Of a DNA stretch of 64,000 nucleotides, positions 8,831-58,593 are shown piece by piece; position 1 is the first letter of the stretch, and every line of letters begins with the position of its first letter. The stretch spans positions 1,012 through 65,011 of the forward strand of contig JBAYVT010000001.1 in the NCBI GenBank assembly GCA_041674405.1, in the 5' to 3' direction. Below the pieces are notes generated by a model. The model was not told where the DNA came from. It did no database searches and saw only the letters and a list, made by a program, of their open reading frames with translations. The DNA is from Patescibacteria group bacterium. GTDB lineage: Bacteria; Patescibacteriota; UBA1384; XYA2-FULL-43-10. A program made the position numbers and the translations under genes.

Positions 8831-8887
8831 ATCAATCCTCTTGCCCTGAGCGAGGTCGAAGGGCAACATTTCTTAATTTCATATTAT

Positions 8888-10144: not shown

Positions 10145-10407
10145 ACAATTTCCTACGCGAGATTTCGCGTTAATATTAAAACTTCGAATAGCTCTTTAAG
10201 AACGTCGAAGTTTTAATTCGGAAATCTAAAGAACGATTTCGAGACTTCGAAAGTATATCATTAATTAGTATTTAAGTCAAGGATTGTATCTCGATGAATT
10301 AAGAGGTTGTAAGCTTGATGATTGCTCAAGTTGTACCAGTATGAATTGAAAATAATCAATTTCTAAAGGTTAAAACCAATGCGGGCCAATTAAAACACAA
10401 ATAAAAA

Positions 10408-10445
10408 GACCAGAGGAATTAAATAAATTAATTGCTCTGGTCTTG
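10408..10445 (-). terminator. Rho-independent terminator of high-GC gene B
   Basis: gaccagag...ctctggtc 8-bp stem followed on the minus strand by a TTTTTATTTGTGTTTT run. A second 8-bp hairpin (gctccgac/gtcggagc) lies at 10447-10469. Confidence 0.5.
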
Positions 10446-10501
10446 CTCCGACAAACGTCGTCGGAGCACCAGTACCACCTCCAGTTCACCAAGACTTGAC
10501 G

Positions 10502-10993
10502 CTACAGCGCCGGCGGCTGCGGCATGCCGCAGCCAATCATTACGATACCCACGCTGCCTGCGGGTGCAGCCTCCATGATGCGCTCGACGGTGCACTGCGG
10601 GCAGGTGCATGTGGACTTGTCCCTCGTCCAGACCTTCCAACCTGCCGCGACTCCGTAGTGCCGCTCGCCGAAAAGGCCGAAGACAGCCTTCATCTCGTAG
10701 TCGTAGATGTCCGTGATGAGCTTCACCCGCGCTGCATGCTCGAGGCACTGGCGCAGGAAGTCCTTGTTGTCGTCTGTGTCCTGTTCCTCGATCTCATCGA
10801 GTTTCTTCAAGATGCCCTCGGCCTCCGGCCGGAAGCTCTCGATGAGGCTGTACAGGCGCTTCAGCTCCTCGGGCAGGTCCCCGATCACATTGGCGTTCTC
10901 CGGGATCGGACCCTCGGGCTCGATTAGCTCAACTACTCCCATGCCAGCCAGTACGTCCTGAATCTTTAACATCGACATCACCTTTATTTTCAC
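10502..10993 (-). CDS. Hypothetical protein, high-GC island B (163 aa, acidic, CxCPxC motif)
   Basis: GC about 60% ORF with coherent protein-like composition. C-terminal KSTCTCPQC. The first about 12 codons are AT-rich. Confidence 0.5.
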   Translation of the reverse strand: MKIKVMSMLKIQDVLAGMGVVELIEPEGPIPENANVIGDLPEELKRLYSLIESFRPEAEGILKKLDEIEEQDTDDNKDFLRQCLEHAARVKLITDIYDYEMKAVFGLFGERHYGVAAGWKVWTRDKSTCTCPQCTVERIMEAAPAGSVGIVMIGCGMPQPPAL

Positions 10994-11027
10994 TGCCGAT
11001 CGTTATCAGTCAGTGCCCCCTTGCCAC

Positions 11028-11077
11028 CTTTCGGGAGCAAATAATCGGAAATAATTCCAAACATTTGCTCCCGAAAG
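11028..11077. promoter_or_regulatory. 15-bp perfect inverted repeat with 20-nt loop (ctttcgggagcaaat ... atttgctcccgaaag), 35 nt upstream of gene B start
   Basis: Read directly. Located in the C-B intergenic region on the minus-strand transcript. Could be a terminator/attenuator or an operator. Confidence 0.35.
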
Positions 11078-11244
11078 ATTGAATAATATTAACATATTAA
11101 TTCTGATCTGTCAACGATCGTGAATTGTAGTGTTTCTTGCCTTCGGTTGGCATAATCACACAATATACTTAAATTACAACCCTCTTAATCAAAGAACGAA
11201 CCGGCACGCCGATTCGCTCAATGATCATCCCCTCTTTTCCAGTT

Positions 11245-11880
11245 CTAGTGGCTCCTGCCCCCTCGGCCTCGGTCCTTTGCGCCGCGCGTATCCTTGCCCT
11301 GAAGAGCAAGGCGCTTCTGCTTGTCGGCGCGCCTCTTCTTTTGCTCGTCGGTCGGCGATTTCTTCTTGCCCAAGATTCGCTCCTGGGTCGGCGATTTCCT
11401 CGCTTTCTCCTTGGCAAGAAGCGCGCGAACTTCGCGCTTAACCCAGCCATCAAGGCGGTCCAGGTGGACATCCCGTTCCTCCACGCAGACGACCTGGAAG
11501 AGAAGCGGATCGGTCTTCTGGATGGAAACGCATACCTGCGTGTAGCATCCGTTCCGGTGGTAGATGACGCGGCCGGCGGTGATGAAGCACACCGACTGCG
11601 GCTCCTTGTCCGGGTTGGTTGCGGTTGTGCTCGAGGCAATTCCCTCCTTCTGGTCGTCCAGGTGGATGCGGTCCGTATTTGTGGGTACGCTCACATCCAT
11701 CAGGTTGACGAAGAGTCTCGCCTTGGGGATCCGCGCCATAGCTTGAGGAATCCGATACATCCCGTTGCCCTGGTCGGCAAGCTTGACGAAGAGCCGCTGC
11801 CCGACTACCAAGCAGGCAAGCCTGTGATTGTGGATAATGGCGGCATTGCCATTGTTCCGTGAAACCGCGAAATACAGCAT
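11245..11880 (-). CDS. Hypothetical protein, high-GC island C (about 211 aa) with highly basic Lys/Arg-rich C-terminal tail
   Basis: AGGAGG SD 6 nt before the ATG at 11880. Globular N-terminal region, then a tail KEKARKSPTQERILGKKKSPTDEQKKRRADKQKRLALQGKDTRGAKDRGRGGRSH. GC about 58%. Confidence 0.5.
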   Translation of the reverse strand: MLYFAVSRNNGNAAIIHNHRLACLVVGQRLFVKLADQGNGMYRIPQAMARIPKARLFVNLMDVSVPTNTDRIHLDDQKEGIASSTTATNPDKEPQSVCFITAGRVIYHRNGCYTQVCVSIQKTDPLLFQVVCVEERDVHLDRLDGWVKREVRALLAKEKARKSPTQERILGKKKSPTDEQKKRRADKQKRLALQGKDTRGAKDRGRGGRSH

Positions 11881-12066
11881 TTTTTCCTCCTGAGTATTGG
11901 TGTGATTGCGGCGATATTGTTTTAACATAAATTGTTTAGTTTGTAAACCTTTAAAAAGGATGTAAACACAAAAACACCGCCGGTGTTCAGGGCGGTGTTT
12001 TAATATAGAATCAGGCTAACTATTTCGATGTATAGGAAATTCCCTTCGACTTCGCTCAGGGCGAGA

Positions 12067-14715
12067 CTATTTGGAAGTATAGCTGATTCCGGATTTCGCG
12101 GCGATTACGGCTTGTGCAGCGGCAAGTCTGGCGATTGGGACGCGATATGGTGAGCAGGAAACATAATTCATCTTTACTTTGTGGCAGAAGTGAATTGTGG
12201 TAGGATCTCCGCCGTGCTCTCCACAGATGCCGACTTTCAGATTCTTCTTTGATGATCGGCCTTTCTCGATCCCAATCTCAACCATTTTGCCGACACCGTC
12301 TTGGTCGAGAGTTTGGAATGGATCAGCGTCAAAGATGCCAATTTCCTTGTAAACTTTGATGAATTTGCCGGCGTCGTCGCGGGAGAAGCCCATTGTCATT
12401 TGGGTTAAGTCGTTGGTTCCGAAGGAGAAGAATTCAGCTTTCTCAGCGATCTCGTCTGCAGTTACAGCGGCTCGTGGAACTTCGATCATTGTGCCAACCT
12501 TATAGTCGATCTTGGTTTTGTATTCGGACATGACTCGGGTAGCAGTTTCATCAACAACTTTCTTCTGGTTCTCAAACTCCTTGACATTGCCTACAAGCGG
12601 GATCATGATTTCCGGAACGATCTTAAATCCATCTTTCGCAAGTTCGCAAGCGGCAGAGATGATAGCTTCAGCCTGCATCTCGGTGATTTCCGGATATGTA
12701 ATTCCGAGGCGGCAACCGCGGTGGCCAAGCATCGGATTGAATTCGTGCAAATCTTCAGAAACCTGTTTGATCTTGGATTCAGAAATACCGATTTTTTTCG
12801 AAAGAGCTTTGACATCCTCGTTTGTCTTTGGCAAAAACTCATGCAAAGGCGGGTCCAAAAGACGGATGGTTACCGGAAAACCCTTCATTTCGCGGAAGAG
12901 GCCAAGGAAATCTTCTTTCTGGAAAGGTAAGAGCTTTTTCAAGGCTTTTCTTCTTTCGTCTTCGGTATCGGCAAGAATCATCTGTTGCATGAATGGAAGG
13001 CGCTTCTCGTCGAAAAACATGTGTTCGGTGCGGCAGAGGCCGATGCCTTCGGCGCCAAATTCTCGAGCGGTCTTGGCATCAGTCGGCGTGTCTGCATTGG
13101 TGCGAACTCCGAGGACGCGGGTTTTGTCAGCCCAGCCCATGAGAGTCTTGAATTCGGCTTTGATCTCCGGCTCGATTGTTTTGACCTCGCCAAGGATGAC
13201 TTGGCCGGTAGAGCCGTTTAGGGCGATCCATTCCCCTGCTTTGACTGTATATGAACCAACAGTAAATTTCTTCGCTTTTTCATCAATCTTTATATCACCG
13301 CAGCCGGCAACGCATGTTTTGCCCATTCCGCGGGCAACAACTGCGGCGTGGCTGGTCATACCGCCGCGGCAGGTCAAGATTCCCTGTGCTGCGTACATGC
13401 CGTGGATATCATCCGGTGAGGTCTCAGCGCGGACCAGGACGACCTTTTCGTTGTCGCCAAGTTCGGCAGCGGTATCTGCGTCGAAAACGACCTTACCGAC
13501 AGCGGCACCGGGAGAGGCCGGAAGTCCCATTGCGATAACCTCAAGCGTAGCTTTCGGATCGATGACAGGGTGCAAAAGCTGGTCGATAGTTTCCGGTTCT
13601 AGCCGCATTACAGCTTCGTCTTCTCCGATCATTTTCTCTTTGACCAAATCAACAGCGATCTTGACAGCAGCTTGGGCAGTTCTTTTGCCGGTTCTGGTCT
13701 GTAACATGTAGAGCTTGTTTCTTTCGATGGTAAACTCAAAATCCTGAACATCTTTATAATGTTTTTCAAGTTTGTCTGTGATTGCCTTGAGCTCTGTAAA
13801 TGCTTTTGGCATCTCCTTCTTGAGATCGGCTATCGGGTGCGGCGTGCGTACGCCGGCTACAACATCTTCGCCCTGTGCATTGGTAAGGAATTCACCGTAG
13901 AACTCCTTATCACCAGTGGAAGGATTTCTAGTGAATCCGACGCCGGTGGCGCAGTCATCACCCATGTTGCCGAAGACCATTGCCTGGACATTTACGGCTG
14001 TTCCCAAATTGTGAGGAATGTTATTCAAGTTTCTGTAAGTATTGGCTCGGTCATTGCCCCAGCTCTCGAATACCGCTTTGTAGGCCATTTCAAGTTGTTT
14101 AGCCGGATCCTCTGGAAATTCTTTGCCGGTCTCTTTCTTGACCAATTTTTTATATCCGTCGATCACATCTAGAAGATCGTCGGCGGTGAGGTCGGTATCA
14201 AGTTTAGCACCGGCTTTGTCTTTGACAAGATCTAGAACATGTTCAAATTTGTCTTTGTCGATAGCAAGTACGACATTTCCGAACATCTGGATAAATCTTC
14301 GGTAGGCGTCGTGAGCAAATCGGGAATTCCCGGTAAGCTCGGCCATGCCTTTGACAGTTTCATCGTTCAAGCCAAGGTTTAGGATCGTATCCATCATACC
14401 CGGCATCGAGAACTTGGCGCCGGAACGGACGGAGAGAAGGAGCGGATTTTTGGCGTCGCCGAATTTTTTTCCGGTTGACTTTTCAACTTTTGCAAGCATT
14501 GGTGCAAGCTCGGAGTCAAAGTCCTTCGGCAGTTTCTTGCCGTTGTTGTAATAGTAATTGCACATTTCGGTCGTGATAGTAAAACCTGATGGGACCGGAA
14601 CGCCTAAATTCGACATTTCGGCAAGGTTTGCGCCTTTACCGCCCAAGAGAGCTTTCATTTCCGCTTTGCCTTCGGCTTTTCCGTCACCGAAATAATAGAT
14701 GTACTTCGTACTCAT
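12067..14715 (-). CDS. ppdK: Pyruvate, phosphate dikinase
   Basis: 882 aa. N-terminal ATP-grasp (GGKGANLAEM). Central phospho-His domain (GGMTSHAAVVARGMG). C-terminal PEP-utilising TIM barrel (CGEHGGDP). Confidence 0.9.
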   Translation of the reverse strand: MSTKYIYYFGDGKAEGKAEMKALLGGKGANLAEMSNLGVPVPSGFTITTEMCNYYYNNGKKLPKDFDSELAPMLAKVEKSTGKKFGDAKNPLLLSVRSGAKFSMPGMMDTILNLGLNDETVKGMAELTGNSRFAHDAYRRFIQMFGNVVLAIDKDKFEHVLDLVKDKAGAKLDTDLTADDLLDVIDGYKKLVKKETGKEFPEDPAKQLEMAYKAVFESWGNDRANTYRNLNNIPHNLGTAVNVQAMVFGNMGDDCATGVGFTRNPSTGDKEFYGEFLTNAQGEDVVAGVRTPHPIADLKKEMPKAFTELKAITDKLEKHYKDVQDFEFTIERNKLYMLQTRTGKRTAQAAVKIAVDLVKEKMIGEDEAVMRLEPETIDQLLHPVIDPKATLEVIAMGLPASPGAAVGKVVFDADTAAELGDNEKVVLVRAETSPDDIHGMYAAQGILTCRGGMTSHAAVVARGMGKTCVAGCGDIKIDEKAKKFTVGSYTVKAGEWIALNGSTGQVILGEVKTIEPEIKAEFKTLMGWADKTRVLGVRTNADTPTDAKTAREFGAEGIGLCRTEHMFFDEKRLPFMQQMILADTEDERRKALKKLLPFQKEDFLGLFREMKGFPVTIRLLDPPLHEFLPKTNEDVKALSKKIGISESKIKQVSEDLHEFNPMLGHRGCRLGITYPEITEMQAEAIISAACELAKDGFKIVPEIMIPLVGNVKEFENQKKVVDETATRVMSEYKTKIDYKVGTMIEVPRAAVTADEIAEKAEFFSFGTNDLTQMTMGFSRDDAGKFIKVYKEIGIFDADPFQTLDQDGVGKMVEIGIEKGRSSKKNLKVGICGEHGGDPTTIHFCHKVKMNYVSCSPYRVPIARLAAAQAVIAAKSGISYTSK

Positions 14716-14893
14716 AGTAGATTCCTATTTAATAATGACGAAATTATATTAGCAAAAAATTATTTTAAGATCAAATATCCTTTATTTATAACATTCCCAA
14801 ATATTTGAGATATCTGATCAAATGATAGACAAATCCGGTAAAATATGTTAAAAAAGATTGCGCACATCATCCAGCACCCAACAGGAGAAAACC

Positions 14894-15679
14894 ATGATCC
14901 CGATGTACCTGAAGGATATTCCGATCGGTCCACATGTGGGTAAGGTGGTTGAAGAGTTCGATTCCGACACAGAGACACGCTACAGCATCCTGTCGGGCGT
15001 GTTCAACAACCAGGGATATATCCTCTCCCGCGAGGATGTAGAGGAAGAGTTCGGCAAGAACTCGTGCCTCCTTGACTTCATTTCACACGTTCATCTGCGC
15101 GAGCAGATGGCTGGATTAACCTTGTGGCTCAAGACTTTCGTCGCAGAAGTGAGAGGCGAAGGCGCTGCTCGTGTCATGTTTCCCGAATTTGAAGAGCACA
15201 ACGCACGAATACACTTGTTGCGAAGCGAGTGGATTCGCCACGAGGCCATTCGGGAGGCTACCAACGACGCGCTGAAAGCCCTGGCGGAATGCATGCGATG
15301 GTTCAACATTCAGATGGTGGCGGGATGGATCCAGCGCACCCTGACGGATGTGCTGGAACAGATGGAAATCTGCATGGATTTCGATGCATTCGAAGTGCCG
15401 CGGCAGTGTTCGTTGCTCGACGATCTGGCGTATCGTATGGGCAGAAGCGAGATGCGGTCGTCATGCGCCCGCGCCTACAACAGCCTGGCTGTCGCCTGTG
15501 AGTCGAGCCCGATCTTCAAAGACGTGGTGCTTCTTCCTCCCGAAAAGATTGTTCGTCTCGGACAGTGGCGCATGGGGCTGATCCAAGATCCGGGTCTTGT
15601 CCCAGAAGAGAAGCCCGAGGAGGACGAGGACGATTACGCCCTGAACGAATCCGGCATATTCGTGCCGAAGAAGAAGTGA
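14894..15679 (+). CDS. Hypothetical protein, high-GC island D (about 261 aa, acidic C-terminus)
   Basis: AGGAGA SD 5 nt before the ATG at 14894 (MIPMYLKD...). GC about 57%. Ends EEKPEEDEDDYALNESGIFVPKKK. Confidence 0.5.
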   Translation: MIPMYLKDIPIGPHVGKVVEEFDSDTETRYSILSGVFNNQGYILSREDVEEEFGKNSCLLDFISHVHLREQMAGLTLWLKTFVAEVRGEGAARVMFPEFEEHNARIHLLRSEWIRHEAIREATNDALKALAECMRWFNIQMVAGWIQRTLTDVLEQMEICMDFDAFEVPRQCSLLDDLAYRMGRSEMRSSCARAYNSLAVACESSPIFKDVVLLPPEKIVRLGQWRMGLIQDPGLVPEEKPEEDEDDYALNESGIFVPKKK

Positions 15680-15734
15680 TAGGAGGTGGAGAGCCGTGAG
15701 CGGACCTGTGTGGCCCGCTCTTGGCGTTTTAAAA

Positions 15735-16208
15735 CTAATTAATTATAACCCCGCCGATGAAGTTCTGTGAGAATACGACTTCATCCTTATATTCAATATA
15801 TTCGTTGTCTGCAAAGTCTTCGATATTTCCAGTAAGTGCGCTAAAGTATTCAAAATTGCCATCATGAAAATGCTGGGGCCCACGGAAAGGTGATTCCGGA
15901 TCCATCGCAAGAAGAGCCGTTTTTAAAAATTCGATCGTCTTTTTCGTGAGTTCTTTGTCGCCGTGGTGATCAAAAGCCATGCCACCGGCGTATGCCATTG
16001 CCCAAACAGGCTTGCCTTCGAAATAAACGATCTCCTGCCCAGGGGCGAAATAGTGTCCTGTATATGAATCGTGAAACAGCCAATCCCCTTCTTTGTATTC
16101 AATCTCGTCAAAACCTTGGCGCTGCGGTGAGACTTCATTGCCATCACCAGCGTAGCCGTTTTTATTGGCTTCGTATAAAAATTTTTTTAATTCATCTAAA
16201 TTAATCAT
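15735..16208 (-). CDS. Hypothetical conserved protein (157 aa)
   Basis: Soluble. Host-like AT-rich codon usage. No confident family assignment. Confidence 0.5.
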   Translation of the reverse strand: MINLDELKKFLYEANKNGYAGDGNEVSPQRQGFDEIEYKEGDWLFHDSYTGHYFAPGQEIVYFEGKPVWAMAYAGGMAFDHHGDKELTKKTIEFLKTALLAMDPESPFRGPQHFHDGNFEYFSALTGNIEDFADNEYIEYKDEVVFSQNFIGGVIIN

Positions 16209-27412: not shown

Positions 27413-29014
27413 ATGTTTGAAAATAATCTATTTAAACGTTCCAAAAACAACGGCTTTAAAAAGTCTCCGCTTGTGTTGATTGTTTTAGATGGTTGGGGAA
27501 TCGCCCCGTCTTGGGGAGGAAATGCAATAACATTATCATCTACTCCGGTGTTTGATGGTCTCTTGCGTGAATATCCATCCACCGCCCTACAAGCTTCTGG
27601 CCTAGCTGTTGGCCTTCCGGACGGCGCGCCTGGCAACTCTGAAGCTGGACATTTAAATATCGGGGCTGGAAGAATTGTACACCAAGATATCTCACTTATC
27701 GATTCAGCGATAGAAAACGGAGATTTTTTTAAAAACGATATTCTCCGTGAAACATATGAACATGCAGAAAAAAACGAGAGCAACATTCACATTATGGGGC
27801 TCTTGTCTGATGTTGGCACGCATAGCCACATACGGCATCTGGATGCATTGCTTAAGTATTTTAAAGATAAAAATTTTAATCGGATATACATTCATCTTTT
27901 TTCTGATGGCAGAGATTCTGATCCGATGTATGGAATTGAGCTAATTGGCAAGGTTAACAAAATAATTGAAGGCGCTGGTATTGGCAGGATCGAATCTATC
28001 ATGGGCCGTTTTTATGCAATGGACCGCGATAACCGCTGGGGGCGCACAGCCCGTGCTTATAATTGTTTTGTCCGATCTGAGGCAGAATCGGTAGAAAACG
28101 CTAACGAAGTTTTTTCCAGATCATATGCTGCTGGCACAACCGATGAATTTATTGAGCCAAGAATAATTAATAATAAAAATTTTCATTTCGTTCCCATCCG
28201 GGATAATGATTCAATAATAATTTTTAATTTTAGATATGACAGGGTCAACCAACTAATTGATTGTTTCGTTAAAGATTCGATTGATCGCTTTCCCGACCAT
28301 AGAAAGCTCCAAAACCTTTTTGTTTCTTCCTTTGCGAACAGCTCTGATATGACAAAATTTAAAACGATTATACAAGCTCCTAAAATAGAAAATCCGATTG
28401 CCAAAGTTTTATCAGAAAACGGCTTGAAGCAATTACATATTGCTGAAACAGAGAAATTTCCTCATGTAACCTATTTTTTTAATGGTGGCATTGATGAGGC
28501 AAACAAGAATGAAGACCGGTTAAGAATTCCCTCGCCCAAGGTTCGAACATACGACCTTAAGCCTGAAATGAGTGCCGATAAGGTTTTAAAGTCTGTACTC
28601 TCTGCGCTGAATAAAAATATTTATGATTTTTATGTTGTAAATTTTGCCAATCCTGACATGGTGGGCCATACCGGAAATTTAAAGGCTACCATGCACGCTG
28701 TTTCGTTCGTCGACCAGTGCCTTGGACAGATAATACTTAGTATCCAGAGTAAAAACGGAACCGCGGTAATATGCGCTGACCATGGTAACGCCGAACAAAT
28801 GGTTAATCCGCAAACCGGTGATCCGGATACGGAACACACGACCAATCCTGTTCCGTTTATTGTGGTAAGTGATAATTTGAAAGATAAAATTTCACTCAAC
28901 TCAAACGGCTCGTTATCAAATATTGCCCCGAGTATTTTGGATCTTTTGAATATAGATGTTCCAAATGAAATGAAAACCAAAGAAAGTTTAATCATAAAAC
29001 GGGAGATGATTTAG
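27413..29014 (+). CDS. gpmI: 2,3-bisphosphoglycerate-independent phosphoglycerate mutase
   Basis: LIVLDGWG, catalytic Ser in GNSEAGHLNIGAGR, metal ligands NPDMVGHTGN and CADHGNAE. Confidence 0.9.
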   Translation: MFENNLFKRSKNNGFKKSPLVLIVLDGWGIAPSWGGNAITLSSTPVFDGLLREYPSTALQASGLAVGLPDGAPGNSEAGHLNIGAGRIVHQDISLIDSAIENGDFFKNDILRETYEHAEKNESNIHIMGLLSDVGTHSHIRHLDALLKYFKDKNFNRIYIHLFSDGRDSDPMYGIELIGKVNKIIEGAGIGRIESIMGRFYAMDRDNRWGRTARAYNCFVRSEAESVENANEVFSRSYAAGTTDEFIEPRIINNKNFHFVPIRDNDSIIIFNFRYDRVNQLIDCFVKDSIDRFPDHRKLQNLFVSSFANSSDMTKFKTIIQAPKIENPIAKVLSENGLKQLHIAETEKFPHVTYFFNGGIDEANKNEDRLRIPSPKVRTYDLKPEMSADKVLKSVLSALNKNIYDFYVVNFANPDMVGHTGNLKATMHAVSFVDQCLGQIILSIQSKNGTAVICADHGNAEQMVNPQTGDPDTEHTTNPVPFIVVSDNLKDKISLNSNGSLSNIAPSILDLLNIDVPNEMKTKESLIIKREMI

Positions 29015-30580
29015 TTGGAAAAGATTACTTCGAAAAAAGTTTGTTTGATAATACTGGACGGCTGGGGTTTCTCGCTAAATCGCGCTGGAAATGCAATTTT
29101 TTTAGCTGGCCCAAGGAACTTCGATAATTTATGGCAATCATATGGCCATGCAGTTCTATCGACTCATAGCAATTTACAGAAAAATAACGATGATAGTATT
29201 AATTCTCAAATTTGTTATACACAAATCTCGGCTGGTCGATTTGTTAAAAGCGAATCTCAAATCATTGCTGATGAATTTACGAGCGGAAATTTTTTAGAAA
29301 ATGAGGTTTTAAACAACACATTTTTAAATGCAATTTCCCATGACTCAAACGTTCATTTTGTTTGTCCAATAGATGAAAGTGAATATTCCCTGGAATATAT
29401 ATATGGCCTTCTAAAAATGGCATCATCGTATCAGGAGGTTTCTGTATATATCCACTTGGTAATTTCAAAGGATAACTCATACCAGGAACTTTACCAAGTC
29501 CTGGACAAGATAAAAGATTCTACCTCAAAGACCAGTAATTGCATCATTGCATCAATATTCGGAAGTGATTATTCAGCGTATGACATAACGGAATATTCAA
29601 AAATTCTTTCGGCCTACAATGCAATCATTTGGGGCGAAGGAAAACAATATTTTGAGATATCGCAAGTCCTAAAGTCCAACGAGGAAAAAAATGTCAGACC
29701 CCACCAAATTGAGCCATCCATTATCGTAAACGATGGTAAAGCCGTAGGAATTTCATCAGATTTCGATAACTTTATATTTAGTTCAGTAACAGGTGAACCA
29801 GTCAAAATGCTTTTTATATCTCTGGCTAATGGTATAAAAAGCGTAAAATCACGCCGAAAATTTAATCTTAAGCTTATTCCGTTTGCTGATTATTTACACA
29901 CTAAAAGTGTAAGTTGTGATCATGTATTCAAAAGTGTGGCAATATCGCCAAACTTATCGGAGATTATTAGTAAGTCTGGGATTGGTCAATTTCACGTTGG
30001 GGAAAGCATAAATGAAGATGAAGTAAGTTTTTATTTTAATGGCAGGATATCAAATAATTTTCCTGAAGAAAAAATTATGATTGTCACGTCTTCTGAAAAC
30101 TCTGCAAAGAACCATGGTTTGTCTTCGTCTTATATTGCCAAAGTAACGATTGACCAAATGATGAAGAACAAAGAGTGTTTTATTGTCGCCGGCTTTGCAA
30201 ATGTTGATTATTTTGCTCATACTAAAGATGTGAGATCTACCGCCTTGGCAGTAGCCGCGCTTGATGATTGTTTAAAATTAATTTATGACGCATCGATAAG
30301 AACAAACACAACTCTGGTGATTACGGGAAGTCACGGAAACGCGGAAAATATGGCAAGAAGTGCCAATTTAGATACGTTCTCGAAAAGTCCTGTTCCTTTC
30401 ATTGTCGTTTCACCGGAAACGAGAAAAAACACAACCTCTCAATTCAGACAGGTAAATTTTTCAAGCATGATTTCTTTGAAACATTCAATTTGTGATATTG
30501 CCCCAACAATTTTAAACATCATGGATATTAAAATTCCATCAGAGTTTTCCGGGAGAAGTCTTATAAATTATTTAGAATAG
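29015..30580 (+). CDS. Divergent iPGM paralog (possible pseudoenzyme or altered specificity)
   Basis: TTG start 0 nt after the gpmI stop. Same domain order (IILDGWGF ... NVDYFAHTKD ... GSHGNAENM). The GH of the SEAGH motif is replaced (NSQICYTQISAGR) and ADHGN is replaced by GSHGN. Confidence 0.65.
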   Translation: MEKITSKKVCLIILDGWGFSLNRAGNAIFLAGPRNFDNLWQSYGHAVLSTHSNLQKNNDDSINSQICYTQISAGRFVKSESQIIADEFTSGNFLENEVLNNTFLNAISHDSNVHFVCPIDESEYSLEYIYGLLKMASSYQEVSVYIHLVISKDNSYQELYQVLDKIKDSTSKTSNCIIASIFGSDYSAYDITEYSKILSAYNAIIWGEGKQYFEISQVLKSNEEKNVRPHQIEPSIIVNDGKAVGISSDFDNFIFSSVTGEPVKMLFISLANGIKSVKSRRKFNLKLIPFADYLHTKSVSCDHVFKSVAISPNLSEIISKSGIGQFHVGESINEDEVSFYFNGRISNNFPEEKIMIVTSSENSAKNHGLSSSYIAKVTIDQMMKNKECFIVAGFANVDYFAHTKDVRSTALAVAALDDCLKLIYDASIRTNTTLVITGSHGNAENMARSANLDTFSKSPVPFIVVSPETRKNTTSQFRQVNFSSMISLKHSICDIAPTILNIMDIKIPSEFSGRSLINYLE

Positions 30581-34876: not shown

Positions 34877-35065
34877 TTGGTGGACCCGATCAGACATTAG
34901 AACCCGTTTCACTCTTTCGAAACCCTCGGTTCCGAATAACCTCCTATACGGGCAACTCTTGTTTCCCGACCCCTTCCGGAGCTCAAGCCTTCTCTTTGGG
35001 GAGAACAAATTAAAATAGAGTCGCAAGGACTCATTTTATTCTGGTGGACCCGATCAGGCTTGAAC
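34869..35065. repeat. 24-bp direct repeat (ttttatt[t/c]tggtggacccgatcag) duplicating the tRNA-Ala 3' end; att-like
   Basis: Copies at 34869-34892 and 35042-35065, 1 mismatch, bracketing about 150 bp. The second copy is the real tRNA-Ala 3' end plus 8 nt downstream. Confidence 0.5.
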
Positions 35066-35119
35066 TGACGACCTCCTCGATGCCATCGAGGCGCTCTAGC
35101 CAACTGAGCTACGGGCCCA
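35042..35119 (-). tRNA. tRNA-Ala (anticodon GGC), CCA encoded
   Basis: Hand-folded: acceptor gggcccg/cgggtcc, D-arm gctc-agttggcta-gagc, anticodon stem cctcg/cgagg with loop atGGCat, T-arm gtcag-ttcaagc-ctgat, discriminator A, CCA. Confidence 0.8.
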
Positions 35120-51513: not shown

Positions 51514-52788
51514 TTAGTAATGATCGTATGTATGCATTAAAAGCTGGGCGGTAAGCTGTCTCATAGTGTCAATAATGACGGCAACGAGAATTAGTATGCC
51601 TGTTCCACCGATTGCAAGGGTAGAAATATTTGTTACCGATTGAACAATATATGGCAACACACCGATAAGGCCAAGGAATACTGCCCCCAGAAATGTAATT
51701 CTGCTAATAATTTTTCCTAAATATATTTTAGTTTCCGTTCCGGGCCTTAGTCCAGGTAAATAACCGCCCTGTTTTTGTAAATTTTCAGAAATCTGGTCCG
51801 GTTTAAACACTACCGATGTATAGAAGAAAGTGAACAAGAAAATCAGTATGAAATATATGATAGCGTAATACAAATTGTTGTTCACAAGTGTAACTATCCA
51901 AGTTGCAGCATGTTTTATCCAATCAGTTTTTGCGTTTTCAAGATATTTGCCGAGGACGCCTGGAATAACCATAATACTCATGGCAAAGATTATCGGAATT
52001 ACCCCCGCTGTATTTACGCGAATCGGAAGATGAGAATCAACCGCGCCATATTGCGTAGCTCCTCTTGCCCGACGAGCATAAGAAACGGAAATATTTCTTT
52101 GGCCCTCGGTTATATAGATAATTGCTGCGACAATAAGGACAAGCAGAATGCCAATGCCAACAACGCTCAAGATTTTGGTAACATCGCCGGCAGTTAAAAG
52201 AGCGGCTGTATTTCGAAATTGGGTCGGAAATCCGGATAAAATACCCAATGAAATTATCAGTGAAATTCCATTGCCAATCCCTTTTTCGGAGATTAATTCA
52301 CCAAGCCACATAAGAAGCATAGTACCAGCCGAAGCAGAAATCAGCATCATAATAAGATCAAACATAGTCCAAGATGGGACAATGCCTTGGCTGCGTAAGA
52401 CTGCAAGCATAGCATAGGCCTGCAATATTGCGATGGGAACGGTGGCATATCTTGTCCATTGATTTATTTTTTGTTGGCCGGATTGGCCTTCTTTCTGAAG
52501 CTCCTCAATGCTTGGCACAACCATTGCTAAGAGCTGAAATATAATAGATGAGGTTATATACGGGCCAACCCCCATCAAAATGACAGAAAAATTGCTCATC
52601 GTGCCACCAGAGAACATATCAAGTAGTCCAAATATCTGGTTATTTTGGAAAAACAATTTTAGTTGGTTAAAATCTACGCCAGGCAACGGAACATGAGCAA
52701 TTAGCCGCGTTAACAATAGCAGTGAAACGGCAATAATTACCTTGTTTCGTAAATCCTTATACTGCCAGATTTTAGTCAAAAAGTTCAT
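51514..52788 (-). CDS. secY: Preprotein translocase subunit SecY
   Basis: 10 TM. 424 aa. Conserved N-terminus LRNKVIIAVSLLLLTRLIAHVPLPGVD. Confidence 0.9.
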   Translation of the reverse strand: MNFLTKIWQYKDLRNKVIIAVSLLLLTRLIAHVPLPGVDFNQLKLFFQNNQIFGLLDMFSGGTMSNFSVILMGVGPYITSSIIFQLLAMVVPSIEELQKEGQSGQQKINQWTRYATVPIAILQAYAMLAVLRSQGIVPSWTMFDLIMMLISASAGTMLLMWLGELISEKGIGNGISLIISLGILSGFPTQFRNTAALLTAGDVTKILSVVGIGILLVLIVAAIIYITEGQRNISVSYARRARGATQYGAVDSHLPIRVNTAGVIPIIFAMSIMVIPGVLGKYLENAKTDWIKHAATWIVTLVNNNLYYAIIYFILIFLFTFFYTSVVFKPDQISENLQKQGGYLPGLRPGTETKIYLGKIISRITFLGAVFLGLIGVLPYIVQSVTNISTLAIGGTGILILVAVIIDTMRQLTAQLLMHTYDHY

Positions 52789-52818
52789 ACAAAAAAATTC
52801 CGCTTATTTAGCTCTTCG

Positions 52819-52847
52819 ATTTTAACTTAATATTATGCGTAAGTCAA
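52819..52847 (-). promoter_or_regulatory. Sigma70-like promoter for secY (TTGACT-N17-TAAAAT)
   Basis: On the minus strand: cgTTGACTtacgcataatattaagtTAAAATcg, about 30 nt upstream of the secY ATG. Confidence 0.4.
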
Positions 52848-52899
52848 CGATAAATTAGTTTGAAAGATTGAGACATGAGATGAAAACAACGATCGTAAT

Positions 52900-55800
52900 C
52901 TAATATCTTGAAAATATCTTTATCCAAGAAAACGCCCGCTGAAAAGCTTCCAGTATGAGATTTAAGGCGGATTGCTGGGCTTTCTGGGTGATTACAGCAT
53001 TGTCTTCCGATGTGCCAGGATTGCCGGCTTTGTCTTTGGATACGGCTCTTAAATGGTAGGTCTTGGTCGGATCAAGATTGGAGATAATGACAACATGGGC
53101 ATTGGAATAGGATCCGTCTTCCTGGGTTTTGGAAGAATAATTGGAAGATGATACTCCTTCGCCGTATTCAACCTGAGAGGTAGAGGTTTCATCTGTGCGC
53201 CAGGAAACAACCACTTGGGCTTTACCACCATCGGATGATGTGCCGGTTTTGGATTCAATGGTAAGTTCTGTTACTTTTGGCGGACGGGAATCAAGAGCGG
53301 TTTTAAAAGTGTTGGTATCACTTGTGGCCTTGTTACCATATTGGTCTGTGCCTGAAGCAGTAAGAGTGTAGGAGGCGTTGTCAGAAAGATTTGCAATGCT
53401 GATTTCATGATCTTTCTTCATGTCGGAAGTAGCTACTTCTCTCTGTTCTCCACCAGATGGACCATAAAGGACAGATGAGGTGGTCTCGACATTGGTTGCC
53501 CAAGTTACCTTCATGCCAGCATAGGCCTGATCGTCAACGGGCTCAAAGCGAAGATTGGAGATGATGGGGATGGGGGGAGTGGAAAAATCCTTAAGGCCAT
53601 AAAATCTTGTTCCGTCTTGAGCTGTCGCATCAACTCTTAATTGATAGCTGGTACCACCAGAAAGACCAGCTAGTTCTTTAGAAAATTCAGTGCTATAGGT
53701 ATCACTGACAACAATTGATTGGCCAAGATCGCCAACACCAAATTCCAAATTAGTTTTTGCTGGATAAGTGGTAGTCCATGAAACGCTTGCAAGTGTTGGA
53801 GTCAAGACTTTGACTTCTAAATTTTTAATGCCTGGTGCCACCGCCGTGGTGGTCTCATGCCAGGCAGATTCTCCAGTGTTGGCAGAAGTATCCATCCATG
53901 TGACTTTGTAACGATAAGTGCGTTCCGGTTCGAGGCCAACCACCCTTACATTGTGGTTGATGTCAAAACCACCGAAGGCTTGTTCGGTGAGATATTCATT
54001 GCCCTCATAGACGATAACTGATCCTTTGGTGTTTTTGTTAGTCGTCCAGCTCACCGTGATCGATGACGGACCGGCAGTAACGTTCGGCCCATCGATGATG
54101 TTTACTACTCCAGTAGAGCAGTAAACTCCGGTCTGATAAGCAGAGACATTACCTGCATTGTCTTTCGATCTAATGTATATTACATTATCTCCTTCTTGAT
54201 AAGGATGAAGGGAAAGCGTGGTATCGGCAGTAGATTGGACTTGGCCTTGAGAACCATTTTTGTAGTCATAACCAGCAATACCGGCACCGCCGGAATCTCC
54301 GGGAGCATCCCAGGTGGCGGTGAAGTCTTGGGTGGTGGAACAGCCAACAGGAGATAGATTGATATACTCCGGAGCAGGTGGCGGACCGCCATCATAGGAA
54401 TACGTGAATAACTTGGTGGCGGGAGTTTGAATATTCAGGTCGTTATCTTCGGATTTAATAAGCAGATAATATGTGACTCCGGATGTCAAAGCGCCTGCTG
54501 GCACTTGGATATGTTGTTCTGTATCTGCTGCACCGGAATGGGCTTGATAGTGATATGCGCCACTTGATTCCAAAACACCAGATGTAGAGACGGGATCAGC
54601 TGAATCAGAGGTACCAAAGTAGATAAGGTAGCCGCGGATACCGGAACCCCCTTCTTCATCAGCCGCTCCGGCGAAGGTGATGTAGGGACTAGCACTATTT
54701 CCCCAGCCGGAGTCGGTAAACTCGGTGGTCTTTCCGGAGTCACTGTAGAAATGGGCAGAGGAGGGATTGGTGGGGGCAGTAGTATCTGATCCGGTATGAG
54801 TAATGGTGATATTATCCATCATCCCATCCCAGCGGTCGGTTATAGAGTTCACTCGGCTACCGATGTAAAAGTAATAACCACACGAAAGGTTCCCCCAAGG
54901 AGTATCATCAAGAAGAGACGCCACCTCTGTACTATTAACATTAAGTGATATTATTCCACTAGTCCCATCGTAAAGGACCTGAACATTATTCCAGCTCCCG
55001 TCCGCCAAACTAAGAGCTTGGGATTCCAAAACCAGCTTACGGCTTGCAGTTGTAAGATACATTCTAAGCCTGTAATCAAAGATGTCGTAGACCAATCGCA
55101 GTTCGTCTGTGCTCCCCTGGGCGTCAAAAAGTATCTTTTCTTTTGTAAAAGTCGACAAAAAGCCCGATCCGTCAATTTTTGTTTGGACAACTCGATTGTT
55201 TTGATAGTCAACAATATAGATATTTTCAGAAGTCACATCATAAGCAATTCCTCGGGGATAATTGAAATTACCGACTCCACTTCCGTTTGTACCGTAAGTT
55301 GTCCACCCGGTGCCATCCATCTTGGTTTTTACAATGCGATGATTGTTATAATCAGTCACAAAAATATTGCCACTTTCTGAATCGACCGTAATACCGCGAG
55401 GTCCATTGAAATTACCTGTCCCATTGCCAGCAGTACCGTAAGCTGTCCATCCTGTGCCGTCCATTTTAGTTTTGACAATGCGGTTGTTGCTATAGTCAGC
55501 GACATAAACATAATCATTGACTTGATCATAATCAATGTAGCAAGGATTGCTGAAGTTTCCTTCACCGCTGCCATTTGTGCCGTAAGCCGTCCACCCGGTG
55601 CCATCCATCTTGGTTTTTACAATACGGTTATTGCCATAATCAACGACGTAAACGTAATCACCAACTGAATCATAAGCAATACCATATGGATGATTAAAAT
55701 TGCCAATGCCACTGCCCACCGTTCCGTAAGCCGTCCACCCGGTGCCATCCATCTTGGTTTTCACGATACGGTTGTTGCTATAGTCAGCGACATAAACATA

Positions 55801-57204
55801 ATCACTTGCCGGATCATAGGCGATACCATATGGACCATTAAAATTACCTACTCCACTTCCAGTTGTGCCATATGCAGTCCACCCCGTACCATCCATTTTG
55901 GTTTTCACAATGCGGTTGTTGCTATAGTCAGTGACATAGATGTAACCACTGGATCGGTCATGAGCAATGCCTAGTGGTTGATTAAATCCAGCCGTACCCC
56001 TGCCATTTGTACCATATGCAGTCCACCCCGTACCATCCATTTTGGTTTTCACAATATTACGATTTCCAGAATCAACCACATAAATATTACCGCTCCCGGG
56101 GTCAAAAACAATACCAGCTGGTTCGGAAAATTTCCCTACTCCACTTCCGTTCGTGCCATATGCAGTCCATTCTGTTCCATCCATCTTGGTTTTGACAATA
56201 CGCTTATTGCCAGTATCAGCAACGTAGGCATAATCACCAGTGGCGTCATAAGAAATACCCGATGGGTTTGAGAAATTGCCTACTCCACTTCCAGTTGTGC
56301 CATATGCAGTCCATTCTGTTCCATCCATCTTGGTTTTGACAATACGCTTATTGCCATAATCAGCGACATAGGCGTAATCACCAACCGGATCATAGGTAAT
56401 ACCGTATGGGCTACTGAAATTTCCTACTCCACTTCCGTTCGTGCCATAAGTTGTCCATCCCGTACCATCCATCTTGGTTTTGACAATGCGGTGATTGCCA
56501 GTATCAGCAACATAGAGATAGCTATTTGTCGAATCATAAACAATGCTATATGAAAGTCCAAAATTTCCTACTCCACTTCCGTTCGTGCCGTAAGTTGTCC
56601 ACCCGGTGCCATCCATCTTGGTTTTGACGATGCGTTTATTGCTGGTATCCATCACATATATATACCCACTAGATGAGTCGTATGCAATTCCACGTGGATT
56701 ATTAAAATTTCCTATTCCACTTCCGTTCGTGCCATAAGTTGTCCATCCCGTACCATCCATCTTGGTTTTGACAATGCGGTTGTTACCATAGTCTGCAACA
56801 TAGACGTAACCATTGGCAGCATCATAGGCAATATTATATGGCAAATAAAGCTGTCCACTGGTGTCAATTGAATTTTTTCCATAATCATCTTTTTGAAAGT
56901 CCAAGGAAATAGAGCCTTTGGACGCAGATAGATTATCATTGGTAGCATATTTTAGAGTCTCGGCGCCATCGTAAGTATATTTAAGAGAACTTCCCGATCC
57001 ACCCTCAGCATTCGTAGTTGAGAGGGTGGGAAAGGTACTATCCGTAGAAGCAGTCCCTAACCCAACAGAGTAATCTGCATTATAGCTTCCATTATCATAT
57101 GAGGTTCTGAAAGAATCTCCTGCTTTGGTTCCTTTTGTAAATATTGGGAAAATATTGTAGGCTACCAAAAATATGATCGTGAGAGAAACGACCAAAATTC
57201 CCAA
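52900..57204 (-). CDS. Giant secreted/surface protein (1434 aa): N-terminal TM anchor, 12 tandem NHL repeats (two 6-bladed beta-propellers), LamG/concanavalin-like domain, several FN3/PAP-N-like domains
   Basis: 12 repeats of about 47 aa (consensus YVADYGNNRIVKTKMDGTGWTAYGTNGSGVGNFNxPxGIAYD). Jelly-roll segment (LRLVYDIFDYRLRMYLT...ISLNVNS). Repeated ...SWTT...YRYKV... beta-sandwich modules. TTG start (alternatively an upstream ATT). Inserted between rplO and secY. Confidence 0.8.
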   Translation of the reverse strand: MGILVVSLTIIFLVAYNIFPIFTKGTKAGDSFRTSYDNGSYNADYSVGLGTASTDSTFPTLSTTNAEGGSGSSLKYTYDGAETLKYATNDNLSASKGSISLDFQKDDYGKNSIDTSGQLYLPYNIAYDAANGYVYVADYGNNRIVKTKMDGTGWTTYGTNGSGIGNFNNPRGIAYDSSSGYIYVMDTSNKRIVKTKMDGTGWTTYGTNGSGVGNFGLSYSIVYDSTNSYLYVADTGNHRIVKTKMDGTGWTTYGTNGSGVGNFSSPYGITYDPVGDYAYVADYGNKRIVKTKMDGTEWTAYGTTGSGVGNFSNPSGISYDATGDYAYVADTGNKRIVKTKMDGTEWTAYGTNGSGVGKFSEPAGIVFDPGSGNIYVVDSGNRNIVKTKMDGTGWTAYGTNGRGTAGFNQPLGIAHDRSSGYIYVTDYSNNRIVKTKMDGTGWTAYGTTGSGVGNFNGPYGIAYDPASDYVYVADYSNNRIVKTKMDGTGWTAYGTVGSGIGNFNHPYGIAYDSVGDYVYVVDYGNNRIVKTKMDGTGWTAYGTNGSGEGNFSNPCYIDYDQVNDYVYVADYSNNRIVKTKMDGTGWTAYGTAGNGTGNFNGPRGITVDSESGNIFVTDYNNHRIVKTKMDGTGWTTYGTNGSGVGNFNYPRGIAYDVTSENIYIVDYQNNRVVQTKIDGSGFLSTFTKEKILFDAQGSTDELRLVYDIFDYRLRMYLTTASRKLVLESQALSLADGSWNNVQVLYDGTSGIISLNVNSTEVASLLDDTPWGNLSCGYYFYIGSRVNSITDRWDGMMDNITITHTGSDTTAPTNPSSAHFYSDSGKTTEFTDSGWGNSASPYITFAGAADEEGGSGIRGYLIYFGTSDSADPVSTSGVLESSGAYHYQAHSGAADTEQHIQVPAGALTSGVTYYLLIKSEDNDLNIQTPATKLFTYSYDGGPPPAPEYINLSPVGCSTTQDFTATWDAPGDSGGAGIAGYDYKNGSQGQVQSTADTTLSLHPYQEGDNVIYIRSKDNAGNVSAYQTGVYCSTGVVNIIDGPNVTAGPSSITVSWTTNKNTKGSVIVYEGNEYLTEQAFGGFDINHNVRVVGLEPERTYRYKVTWMDTSANTGESAWHETTTAVAPGIKNLEVKVLTPTLASVSWTTTYPAKTNLEFGVGDLGQSIVVSDTYSTEFSKELAGLSGGTSYQLRVDATAQDGTRFYGLKDFSTPPIPIISNLRFEPVDDQAYAGMKVTWATNVETTSSVLYGPSGGEQREVATSDMKKDHEISIANLSDNASYTLTASGTDQYGNKATSDTNTFKTALDSRPPKVTELTIESKTGTSSDGGKAQVVVSWRTDETSTSQVEYGEGVSSSNYSSKTQEDGSYSNAHVVIISNLDPTKTYHLRAVSKDKAGNPGTSEDNAVITQKAQQSALNLILEAFQRAFSWIKIFSRY
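55100..56820. repeat. About 12 tandem near-identical 141-bp coding repeats (NHL blades) inside the giant gene
   Basis: Long near-identical DNA stretches are visible (e.g. ccgtaagttgtccacccggtgccatccatcttggttttgacaatgcggt recurring). Confidence 0.7.
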
Positions 57205-57380
57205 AATGCTCTTTTTGTGAATAATTTTTTTTATTTATTCCCCTCACATTTTTTAGTGACAAATACATTTTAACAAAATGTGGCATATCTCATCAATATT
57301 TGAAAGGAAAATGTAACTCATTGCCGTGTACACATGTAAAAATATGCTTACAGAGCGTCTAATTCTTTATTTTTGAATTT

Positions 57381-57407
57381 TGTAAAACAAAAACCGGCTT
57401 TTGCCGG
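57381..57407 (-). terminator. Rho-independent terminator after rplO (ccggc-tttt-gccgg + T-run on minus strand)
   Basis: Read directly. Terminates the spc operon transcript before the giant gene and secY. Confidence 0.5.
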
Positions 57408-57433
57408 AATTTGTTTAGACAAATCGATTGAAA

Positions 57434-57916
57434 TTATTTAGAGCTTTTCTTCGCAGCAGATTTTTTGTCGGATTTAGCGGCTTCCTTTTTTTCAACCTTT
57501 GTTTCAGGCTTTACAAATAAAGAGGCTATGCTTTTGGAAGCTTTGATATCTAGAAGGGAAACCTTGACTGTAAGTTTGCCGTTGTTAAGTATCTTTGCTT
57601 TGCTGCCAGTTTCAATCAGCTTTTTCTCAACAAGTGATTTTAAGCTGACAACCTCGCCATCTTTGTAATTCTTGGAAATGTCGTCGAGGGAAATAACTCT
57701 GGCTTTATCATTAACTGATTTAAAGCCTCGAAGTTTCGGCAGGCGCATTGAAAGCGGTGTTTGGCCACCTTCAAAACGTTTGGGAATATTAAAACCAGAA
57801 CGTGATTTTTGGCCCTTGGTTCCGCGCCCTGCTGTTTTACCTTGTCCCGCAGAAATTCCGCGCCCAATTCGCTTAATGCTTTTTTTGCTATATGATTTTA
57901 GTGATATTTTTTCCAT
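57434..57916 (-). CDS. rplO: 50S ribosomal protein L15 (Lys-rich C-terminal extension)
   Basis: GRGISAGQGKTAGRGTKGQKSRSG. Confidence 0.9.
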   Translation of the reverse strand: MEKISLKSYSKKSIKRIGRGISAGQGKTAGRGTKGQKSRSGFNIPKRFEGGQTPLSMRLPKLRGFKSVNDKARVISLDDISKNYKDGEVVSLKSLVEKKLIETGSKAKILNNGKLTVKVSLLDIKASKSIASLFVKPETKVEKKEAAKSDKKSAAKKSSK

Positions 57917-57924
57917 GAGTTTGC

Positions 57925-58593
57925 CTATTTTTTAGCTTTAATTTTCGCTTTCGTGTCCTTCTTTGCCGGTTTGCTATTTGGTTTTATTGGCTCTGCTTTT
58001 TTTTCTCCAGTCTTTTCTTCAGCTAATTCAACTTTTACCTCTTTAACCTCAACGCGTTCGCTCTTTTTATCAAAATCTGAGATCTTGTCAACAACACGTG
58101 CACTAAAAGATTGTAAAGCTTTTATCGTGGCAGTAACGTTATTAACTTTGTTTTGGCTCCCCATTGATTTTGCCAAGATATCTGAAATGCCGGCAAGCTC
58201 AACCACGGCACGTACCGAACCACCAGCAACGATGGAAGTACCACTAGAAGCCGGCTTTAGAAGAACGATGGCTGCACCATATTTAGATCTGACTTCATGC
58301 GGAATTGTGCCTTTTATGATAGGAACATTGACTAGGCGTTTCTTTGCTTTGGTAGAAGCCTTTCGAACAGCGTCTGCAACTTCATTTGCCTTGGCAACAC
58401 CCATTCCGACGCGGCCTTTTCTGTCACCCAAAACGATCAAAGCTCTAAAACGGATTCTTCGTCCGCCTTTTACAACTCTGGAGATTCTAGAAACCTCAAT
58501 CACGCGCTCCTCAAATTCCTTTTCTTCTCGAGGTTTTCTGTCCCTGTGAGCAGATCTTGGCCTCATAATATTTTTTTCAAGTTCTTTGGGCAT
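57925..58593 (-). CDS. rpsE: 30S ribosomal protein S5 (N- and C-terminal extensions)
   Basis: dsRBD-like (RVIEVSRISRVVKGGRRIRFRALIVLGD) and S5 C-domain. Followed directly by rplO: no rpmD (L30). Confidence 0.9.
   Translation of the reverse strand: MPKELEKNIMRPRSAHRDRKPREEKEFEERVIEVSRISRVVKGGRRIRFRALIVLGDRKGRVGMGVAKANEVADAVRKASTKAKKRLVNVPIIKGTIPHEVRSKYGAAIVLLKPASSGTSIVAGGSVRAVVELAGISDILAKSMGSQNKVNNVTATIKALQSFSARVVDKISDFDKKSERVEVKEVKVELAEEKTGEKKAEPIKPNSKPAKKDTKAKIKAKK

Follow-up and report, generated by a model that had tools for sequence, protein, structure and literature searches.

We analyzed a 64-kb stretch of DNA from an uncultivated member of the Patescibacteria (contig JBAYVT010000001.1; hereinafter the window), in which a gene for a giant protein of 1434 amino acids (aa) lies between rplO and secY, the genes for ribosomal protein L15 and SecY. 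We interpret its product as a Sec-exported surface protein that serves in binding and is built of head, stalk and anchor; its gene would have come into a repeatedly broken rplO|secY junction by relocation or insertion in the same orientation. We give this reading a probability of roughly 60%. The protein would belong to a large uncharacterised family of the Patescibacteria (Berkelbacteria-like). Its distal head would be a laminin G (LamG)/concanavalin A (ConA)-like sandwich split by an array of twelve NHL blades and carried on a stalk of six fibronectin type III (FN3)-like modules, while a conserved C-terminal amphipathic helix would most likely tether or dock the protein at the cell envelope.

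A predicted LamG head with a nested NHL array

The most prominent part of the protein is an array of twelve NHL blades with an exact 48-aa period (aa 113-685; 55150..56868, on the minus strand, as are all features of this locus given below). The Pfam NHL model (PF01436) detects it in the whole protein with E = 1.9e-61 (201.6 bits against a cut-off of 20), and the motif R[IV]VKTKMDGTGW recurs twelve times at a spacing of exactly 48 residues from aa 143 to aa 671, bearing out the twelve blades proposed in the first-pass annotation of this gene. At the DNA level the array is a 144-nucleotide (nt) tandem repeat with 72% matches. The blades are near-consensus repeats, and their invariant residues are structural ones (D, Y, W, G). 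An AlphaFold2 (AF2) model of aa 1-850, built with a 15-sequence alignment (pLDDT 83.6), comprises a helix at aa 2-22, five strands at aa 31-104, twelve four-stranded blades at aa 122-675 and nine strands at aa 689-803. The closest structural matches of the propeller region are TRIM71, TRIM2, NHLRC2, LRP and PknD. A double six-bladed propeller, which had been put forward for checking by structure prediction, is thus supported as far as the twelve four-stranded blades are concerned; that these form two closed six-bladed propellers nested in the LamG domain is what we infer from them.

On either side of the array lie the two parts of the LamG/ConA-like domain. The N-terminal part (aa 28-110; 56875..57123) corresponds to the five strands preceding the blades in the AF2 model, and is assigned to the domain by profile and Laminin_G_3 alignments that cross the junction. 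The C-terminal part (aa 686-815; 54760..55149) corresponds to the nine strands following the blades, and matches Laminin_G_3 (PF13385) and LamG structures in the PDB. A concanavalin/LamG-like domain had been proposed earlier, and it holds with a qualification: on the whole protein it falls under the Pfam cut-off (Laminin_G_1, 18.6 bits against 24), while Laminin_G_3 passes on the isolated segment aa 685-818 (32.8 bits against 27.6). We further constructed a split-LamG profile by cutting the propellers from 11 family members and joining aa 28-110 to aa 687-818. Run against solved structures, it recovers the neurexin-1alpha LNS domain (E = 2.1e-18) and the laminin alpha1 LG domain (3.2e-10). The best neurexin match spans profile positions 37-180, running over the excision point; on its two sides the family sequence '...geielklkk' pairs with neurexin 'EITLSFKT' and 'kvLlttqg' with 'GLMLHTGK'. 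Because the profile alignments are continuous across the excision point, the LamG domain is, as judged from these alignments, split by the nested array, with all the NHL blades placed inside one of its loops.

The stalk and the C-terminal tail

The head is followed by six beta-sandwich modules of the FN3 or purple acid phosphatase N-terminal (PAP-N) type (aa ~830-1406; 52987..54717), which are supported by AF2, Foldseek and Pfam alike. At least four such modules had been recognized in the first pass; the AF2 model of aa 821-1434 (pLDDT 84.4) yields six, together with a terminal helix. On the Pfam side, Pur_ac_phosph_N scores 2.2e-16 (60.6 bits against 30) and fn3 5.5e-9 (36.6 bits against 25), and Foldseek searches with the stalk model return multi-FN3 ectodomains, such as those of gp130, RPTP-sigma and fibronectin, with a probability of 1.00. 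We estimate the length of the stalk as 20 nm or more. We also observed that the GC skew is +0.08 to +0.13 over the stalk half of the gene (window 53001-55000) and negative over the NHL half and all neighbouring minus-strand genes.

The protein ends in an amphipathic tail (aa 1407-1434; 52903..52986), QQSALNLILEAFQRAFSWIKIFSRY, for which AF2 predicts a helix at aa 1413-1424. These last ~28 residues are conserved across the homologues, with an invariant S and W, and a hidden Markov model of the tail matches the window protein with E = 1e-10. We searched exhaustively, using as query the tail together with the two FN3 modules that precede it, and recovered 1108 clusters at E<=1e-30. The tail (consensus VLTPQKSESVLDIIINSLENTFGWLKKLGK) terminates at least 73 of the 145 new top representatives by a strict pattern and about 100 by eye, in proteins ranging from 271 to 6321 aa, and also occurs in 36 of the 120 best NHL matches. 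The models of Pfam and NCBIfam, those of curated sorting domains included, give no match to it at E<=10, and a word-indexed search with the tail alignment returned 40 short fragments, one of them named WWE3. Look-ups of the clusters yielded hardly any names; those attached to tail-bearing proteins are Berkelbacteria, Patescibacteria group and WWE3. Since the helix is amphipathic with conserved polar residues, it does not look like a transmembrane segment, and we regard the tail as a candidate anchor, docking or sorting element.

Two further observations concern these C-termini. One tail-bearing cluster (P0168, with P0275 and P0276) is labelled Thermoplasmata archaeon and lies on 3-5 kb contigs of metagenome-assembled genomes, reflecting either mis-binning or a tail family that reaches the archaea. 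Further, the FN3/PAP-N stalks of proteins P0121-P0265 fall into two C-terminal classes, with an FGW amphipathic tail in one and, in the same place, a ...RKMLLLK terminus resembling the sorting domain of the type IX secretion system (T9SS) in the other, whose members are relatives from other groups. This suggests that a shared stalk bears interchangeable sorting modules.

A probable signal peptide at the N-terminus

An N-terminal anchor, as originally envisaged for this protein, is probably not what the N-terminus provides. The hydrophobic helix at aa 2-22 is followed by an AxA-type site, TKA|G, so that aa 1-27 (57124..57204) resemble a cleavable signal peptide. Across 15 aligned homologues the hydrophobic h-region and this site are conserved in position, with variants such as SNA|A and AKA|I, and are followed by a conserved SFxANxD. 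Given these AxA-type sites and the conserved mature N-terminus, the helix is probably a Sec signal peptide that would be removed by cleavage. The basic n-region, in turn, appears only with a different start: a GAGGGG Shine-Dalgarno-like box (57245-57240) stands 5 nt ahead of an in-frame ATA at 57234, from which the protein would have 1444 aa and gain the basic segment KKIIHKKSI. In light of this box and segment, the true start may be the ATA, 10 codons upstream of the listed TTG at 57204.

Homologues with exchanged heads and an adjacent ABC pair

We examined eleven distinct homologue loci, whose proteins are 34-47% identical to that of the window; the closest homologues carry the names Candidatus Berkelbacteria or Patescibacteria group. 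In eight of these loci two same-strand genes, one for an ABC ATPase (~245 aa) and one for a MacB_PCD/FtsX permease (~380-400 aa), come directly after the giant gene or after two or three such genes in tandem, with the remaining flanks unrelated from locus to locus; in the other three the pair is not adjacent. Conserved adjacency amid shuffled neighbourhoods is standard evidence of functional linkage. The pair falls in the MacB/LolCDE/FtsEX superfamily, and its best NCBIfam similarities are to LolD/FtsE/MacB and to LolC/E, all far below the curated cut-offs.

Genes neighbouring the homologues encode the same stalk and tail under NHL or DUF2341/LamG3 heads, and the FN3/PAP-N stalk is also shared by a Kelch-headed giant nearby, its C-terminus running off the end of the locus. 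Two of the loci (L169, 1-19017, and L168, 4038-16311) hold clusters of giant genes that have this stalk in common under DUF2341/LamG3, NHL and Kelch heads, one of the clusters having an intervening TetR gene. In another (L171, 2495-7380), a 1346-aa LamG3 giant without the tail is followed by open reading frames (ORFs) of 110 aa and 152 aa, and the tail lies at the end of the latter; a frameshift or pseudogenisation in this member, or else an error of assembly, is the probable cause. Elsewhere the cluster of giant genes and ABC genes sits between recA and recX (L166, 4175-14621) or directly before recX (L085, 11618-11920), splitting another commonly adjacent gene pair. In one of the homologue loci the gene comes after rplS. 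Literature searches on NHL proteins in Berkelbacteria or Patescibacteria, and on MacB with Patescibacteria surface proteins, returned nothing specific.

A tentative extension, to which we give clearly less than even odds, is that the tail acts as a surface-display or sorting signal of the Patescibacteria, hitherto undescribed, handled by a dedicated MacB/FtsX-type ABC machine, with the window gene as a member uncoupled from its transporter and parked beside secY.

Binding protein, envelope component or enzyme

The variable distal head, the rigid multi-FN3 stalk, the conserved proximal tail, the head swaps and the tandem paralogues argue for a surface-displayed binding protein. It would most probably bind an external ligand, such as a glycan or a protein on a host cell or substrate, and hence act as an adhesin or receptor and not as an enzyme; this host-attachment or ligand-binding role is one that we infer from the architecture.

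Several observations weigh against the overall reading. First, the window has no MacB-type ABC pair: it is secY that comes next after the giant gene, a tblastn search of the 64 kb gave no FtsX homologue, and the sole ABC ATPase of the window (2235-3161) is unrelated to the pair. With the pair absent from the window, this copy may work differently or rely on a distant partner. Second, the tail has E, Q and R inside its amphipathic helix and offers no classic transmembrane anchor. Third, the protein gives weak Pfam signals for Arylesterase, Lactonase and SGL, and NHL and related propellers can be enzymes. Finally, no genome above ~70% SecY identity was found by which to date the insertion, and promoter-like matches of the kind described below are frequent in this AT-rich window (29 against 18 expected).

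One may ask if the protein is instead a structural, surface layer (S-layer)-like component of the envelope, or a partner regulated by a MacB-type ABC mechanotransmitter, and not an adhesin for foreign surfaces. Its synteny with the ABC_tran and MacB_PCD/FtsX genes in eight of the eleven loci, amid otherwise unrelated flanks, is what such a role would lead one to expect, as MacB/FtsEX-type machines act on extracytoplasmic partners through mechanotransmission (PMC5985334, PMC6355983, PMC7668044); moreover, one S-layer-domain protein (4qvs) is among the matches of the LamG profile. However, neither an SLH domain nor any other that binds the wall is present in the protein, the copy in the window is without the ABC pair, and the variable heads argue for diversifying ligand recognition. 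We therefore consider this role unlikely.

Less probable still is an exported enzyme with catalytic propellers (a lactonase, arylesterase or PAL-like lyase), in which the LamG and FN3 domains serve as substrate-targeting modules. It draws on the Pfam scores (Arylesterase 5.7e-27, Lactonase 1.6e-7). However, no single stretch of the Arylesterase match is significant by itself. Binding propellers make up the best structural matches, the near-consensus blades conserve structural residues, and the Kelch or LamG-only heads on the same stalk fit variable binding modules.

Derived position at a recurrent breakpoint

The ribosomal-protein cluster occupies the right-hand third of the window and lies wholly on the minus strand, with Pfam support for L5, S8, L6, L18, S5 and L15 upstream of the giant gene and for SecY, Adk, Map, IF-1, S13, S11, S4, RpoA and L17 downstream. 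A gene of about 4.3 kb coding for 1434 aa had been reported between rplO and secY, and the ORF (52900..57204, from the listed TTG) with its Pfam-confirmed neighbours, rplO (57434..57916) and secY (51514..52788; Pfam SecY 1.2e-99), agrees with this. The rplO-secY gap amounts to 4.6 kb including a terminator-like hairpin, so that the canonical order of the spc operon, with secY directly after rplO in one transcription unit, is not found here. The L30 gene is missing between S5 and L15, which succeed each other directly (57916-57925); its absence is typical of Candidate Phyla Radiation (CPR)/Patescibacteria members.

To place this arrangement in context, we used SecY scans of GTDB genomes and metagenomes, which gave 144 distinct loci in which S5, L15, SecY and Adk were placed by tblastn. 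Adjacency of rplO and secY, which the first-pass annotation took as the norm, is indeed so in other Patescibacteria (48-56% SecY identity): L15 and SecY are adjacent in 106 of the 110 assessable loci and interrupted in 4. In the clade of the window (SecY identity >=57%) they are adjacent in 11 and interrupted in 12 of 23 loci (odds ratio 29, Fisher p = 4.5e-8). The nearest genomes found by SecY are 66-70% identical, with rplO-secY spacers of 31 and 52 nt; the nearest relatives with an intact junction are L005, L006, L014 and L008. In another of the nearest genomes (L007) the junction holds four unrelated same-strand genes, for an acyltransferase, a 5'-nucleotidase and two unknowns, with a strong terminator directly after rplO, as in the window. 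In L010 about seven opposite-strand genes, including TspO and DUF456, lie at the junction, while some other interrupted loci of the clade have no L15 within 4-8 kb of SecY. A cross-search of the loci found homologues of the cargo genes of L007, L009 and L010 in no other locus.

None of the 144 SecY loci carries a homologue of the giant gene near SecY, and none of the eleven homologue loci is at rplO|secY. Since the nearest genomes have either an intact junction or different cargo, the position of the gene is derived, and the earlier view of it as an insertion and not a conserved ancestral gene stands. The placement had also been called unusual, which is true of the derived position of this gene but less so of the split: with 12 of 23 loci of the clade interrupted and the cargo differing among those compared, the junction is a recurrent breakpoint and the split itself is lineage-typical, a local rearrangement and not a new principle. 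It might be argued that the gene itself is an ancient, lineage-typical occupant of this junction, as the interruption of about half of the clade makes an early loss of adjacency plausible. However, the counts of 0/144 and 11/11 loci elsewhere, the intact junctions of the four nearest relatives and the differing cargo leave this very improbable.

The secY-adk junction is also interrupted in many members of the clade (L009-L012, L089-L102; SecY at 8001-9250 and adk at ~11600-13400), by 2.4-3.5 kb of same-strand genes including one for a LysM protein. The window itself has secY directly next to adk.

The giant gene has the look neither of a mobile element nor of one recently acquired from a foreign source, because no direct or inverted repeats flank the insertion, no relatives of the gene were found in viral contigs, and its GC content at the third codon position (GC3) is native (0.398, against 0.315-0.419 in the neighbours). 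The origin from a mobile element or phage was dismissed on these grounds. The surplus GC of the gene sits at codon position 2 and stems from a composition rich in Gly, Ser, Thr and Ala. An assembly chimera or mobile-element cargo, suggested by the tendency of repeat-rich genes to mis-assemble and by the GC of the gene above that of its flanks, can hardly be credited, given also an intact same-strand ORF with sensible signals at both joints and a protein that is recorded, with 3 member sequences, from a contig of 250,826 bp.

Transcription signals at the two joints

An intrinsic-terminator-like hairpin with an A-tract and a U-tract (57379..57423) begins 11 nt after the stop codon of rplO. Folding the 59 nt that follow rplO gives an extended hairpin of -19.6 kcal/mol (z = -7.3; equalled in stability by 0 of 200 shuffles), which confirms a rho-independent terminator previously noted at 57381-57407 as a stronger one than described. 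Between it and the giant gene lies a promoter-like site, TTGATG-18-TAAAAT with an extended -10 TG (57267..57296), which is a consensus match only (9/12). At the other joint, the spacer of 111 nt ahead of secY shows no structure (z +2.2) and has no terminator. It holds the motif TTGACT-17-TAAAAT (52819..52847), previously given as a consensus promoter of secY; it matches at 10/12 positions and is promoter-like by sequence.

The ribosomal-protein transcripts would stop at the hairpin after rplO, and the giant gene would probably be transcribed from its own promoter; transcription would then probably run on into secY-adk-map, supplemented from the second promoter-like site. As no terminator separates the giant gene from secY, secY may be read through from it. 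Placement in a very highly expressed locus, which had been held to make the gene remarkable, does not follow: with the hairpin insulating it from ribosomal-protein transcription, the gene would not be simply riding on ribosomal-protein expression.

Other features of the window

Away from this locus, tandem genes for cofactor-independent phosphoglycerate mutase-like proteins (27413-29014 and 29015-30580) are found, the second being much more divergent (Metalloenzyme 1e-35 against 1.8e-78). A weak and short tRNA match at 35052-35112 on the minus strand (38.3 bits; positions 7-64 of the 71 in the model) may come from a tRNA that is truncated or unusual. The region 10001-16000, which includes a pyruvate phosphate dikinase gene (12067-14715), reaches a GC content of 0.52 against about 0.39 elsewhere.

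Significance and comparison with known systems

Patescibacteria are believed to lead a life attached to other cells, and the foremost candidates for recognizing a host are large surface proteins, almost none of them characterised. The present locus supplies a defined architecture for one such family: a predicted split LamG domain in which twelve NHL blades are nested, a stalk of six FN3 modules, and a tail that is conserved. It also points to a genetic link of the whole family with a transporter of the MacB-type ABC kind, a testable lead situated in part beyond the window. Further, rplO|secY is among the most conserved bacterial adjacencies and yet is a recurrent breakpoint in one clade, which bears on operon evolution and matters for binning or phylogenomics relying on this syntenic block.

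Compared with the canonical S10-spc-alpha cluster, the window keeps the order L5-S8-L6-L18-S5-L15 ... SecY-Adk-Map-IF1-S13-S11-S4-RpoA-L17 but has the 4.6-kb interruption and the terminator between rplO and secY, and no L30. The closest known propellers are the six-bladed NHL propellers of TRIM71/LIN-41, TRIM2, NHLRC2 and the extracellular sensor domain of M. tuberculosis PknD. In contrast to proteins of the TRIM71/PknD type, that of the window has twelve blades in one uninterrupted, perfectly periodic array, predicted to be nested in another domain; it is also a predicted exported protein, and has no kinase or RING partner. Its LamG domain resembles neurexin LNS2 and laminin LG domains, both by profile alignment and by its PF13385 score. 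Bacterial adhesins are known in which a split domain bears a projecting ligand-binding module, as reported for Graham et al. 2024 in the citing paper (PMC13059738); as against known split-domain designs, the insert here is a putative double propeller of 573 aa, and the protein is not an adhesin of the RTX/type I secretion system (T1SS) kind.

With the T9SS C-terminal domain (CTD) and the LPXTG and PEP-CTERM signals, the tail shares its place at the extreme C-terminus of many large exported proteins, as well as a short basic cluster that often follows its helix. It differs from these and from GlyGly-CTERM in being amphipathic, matching no curated model and having no sortase-like gene nearby. 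The ABC pair linked to the homologues shares the ABC_tran and MacB_PCD/FtsX domains with MacB, LolCDE and FtsEX, but is not orthologous to any named system, as all its NCBIfam scores lie below the curated cut-offs.

Large FN3/ConA surface proteins of Patescibacteria have been proposed as host-adhesion factors (PMC13059738), and transposon sequencing (Tn-seq) has shown adhesins to be genetically required for epibiotic growth (PMC10633639). The protein of the window is like these in its phylum-level group and its size, in having FN3 and ConA-like domains and a probable signal peptide, and in its presumed surface location. They come from Absconditicoccaceae and Saccharibacteria and are likened to it by architecture; neither an NHL head nor this C-terminal tail figures in their description. 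Hence, as a large adhesin-like surface protein of the Patescibacteria it is of a kind already known, and the lead of greater novelty is the undescribed C-terminal tail with its link to a MacB-type ABC pair.

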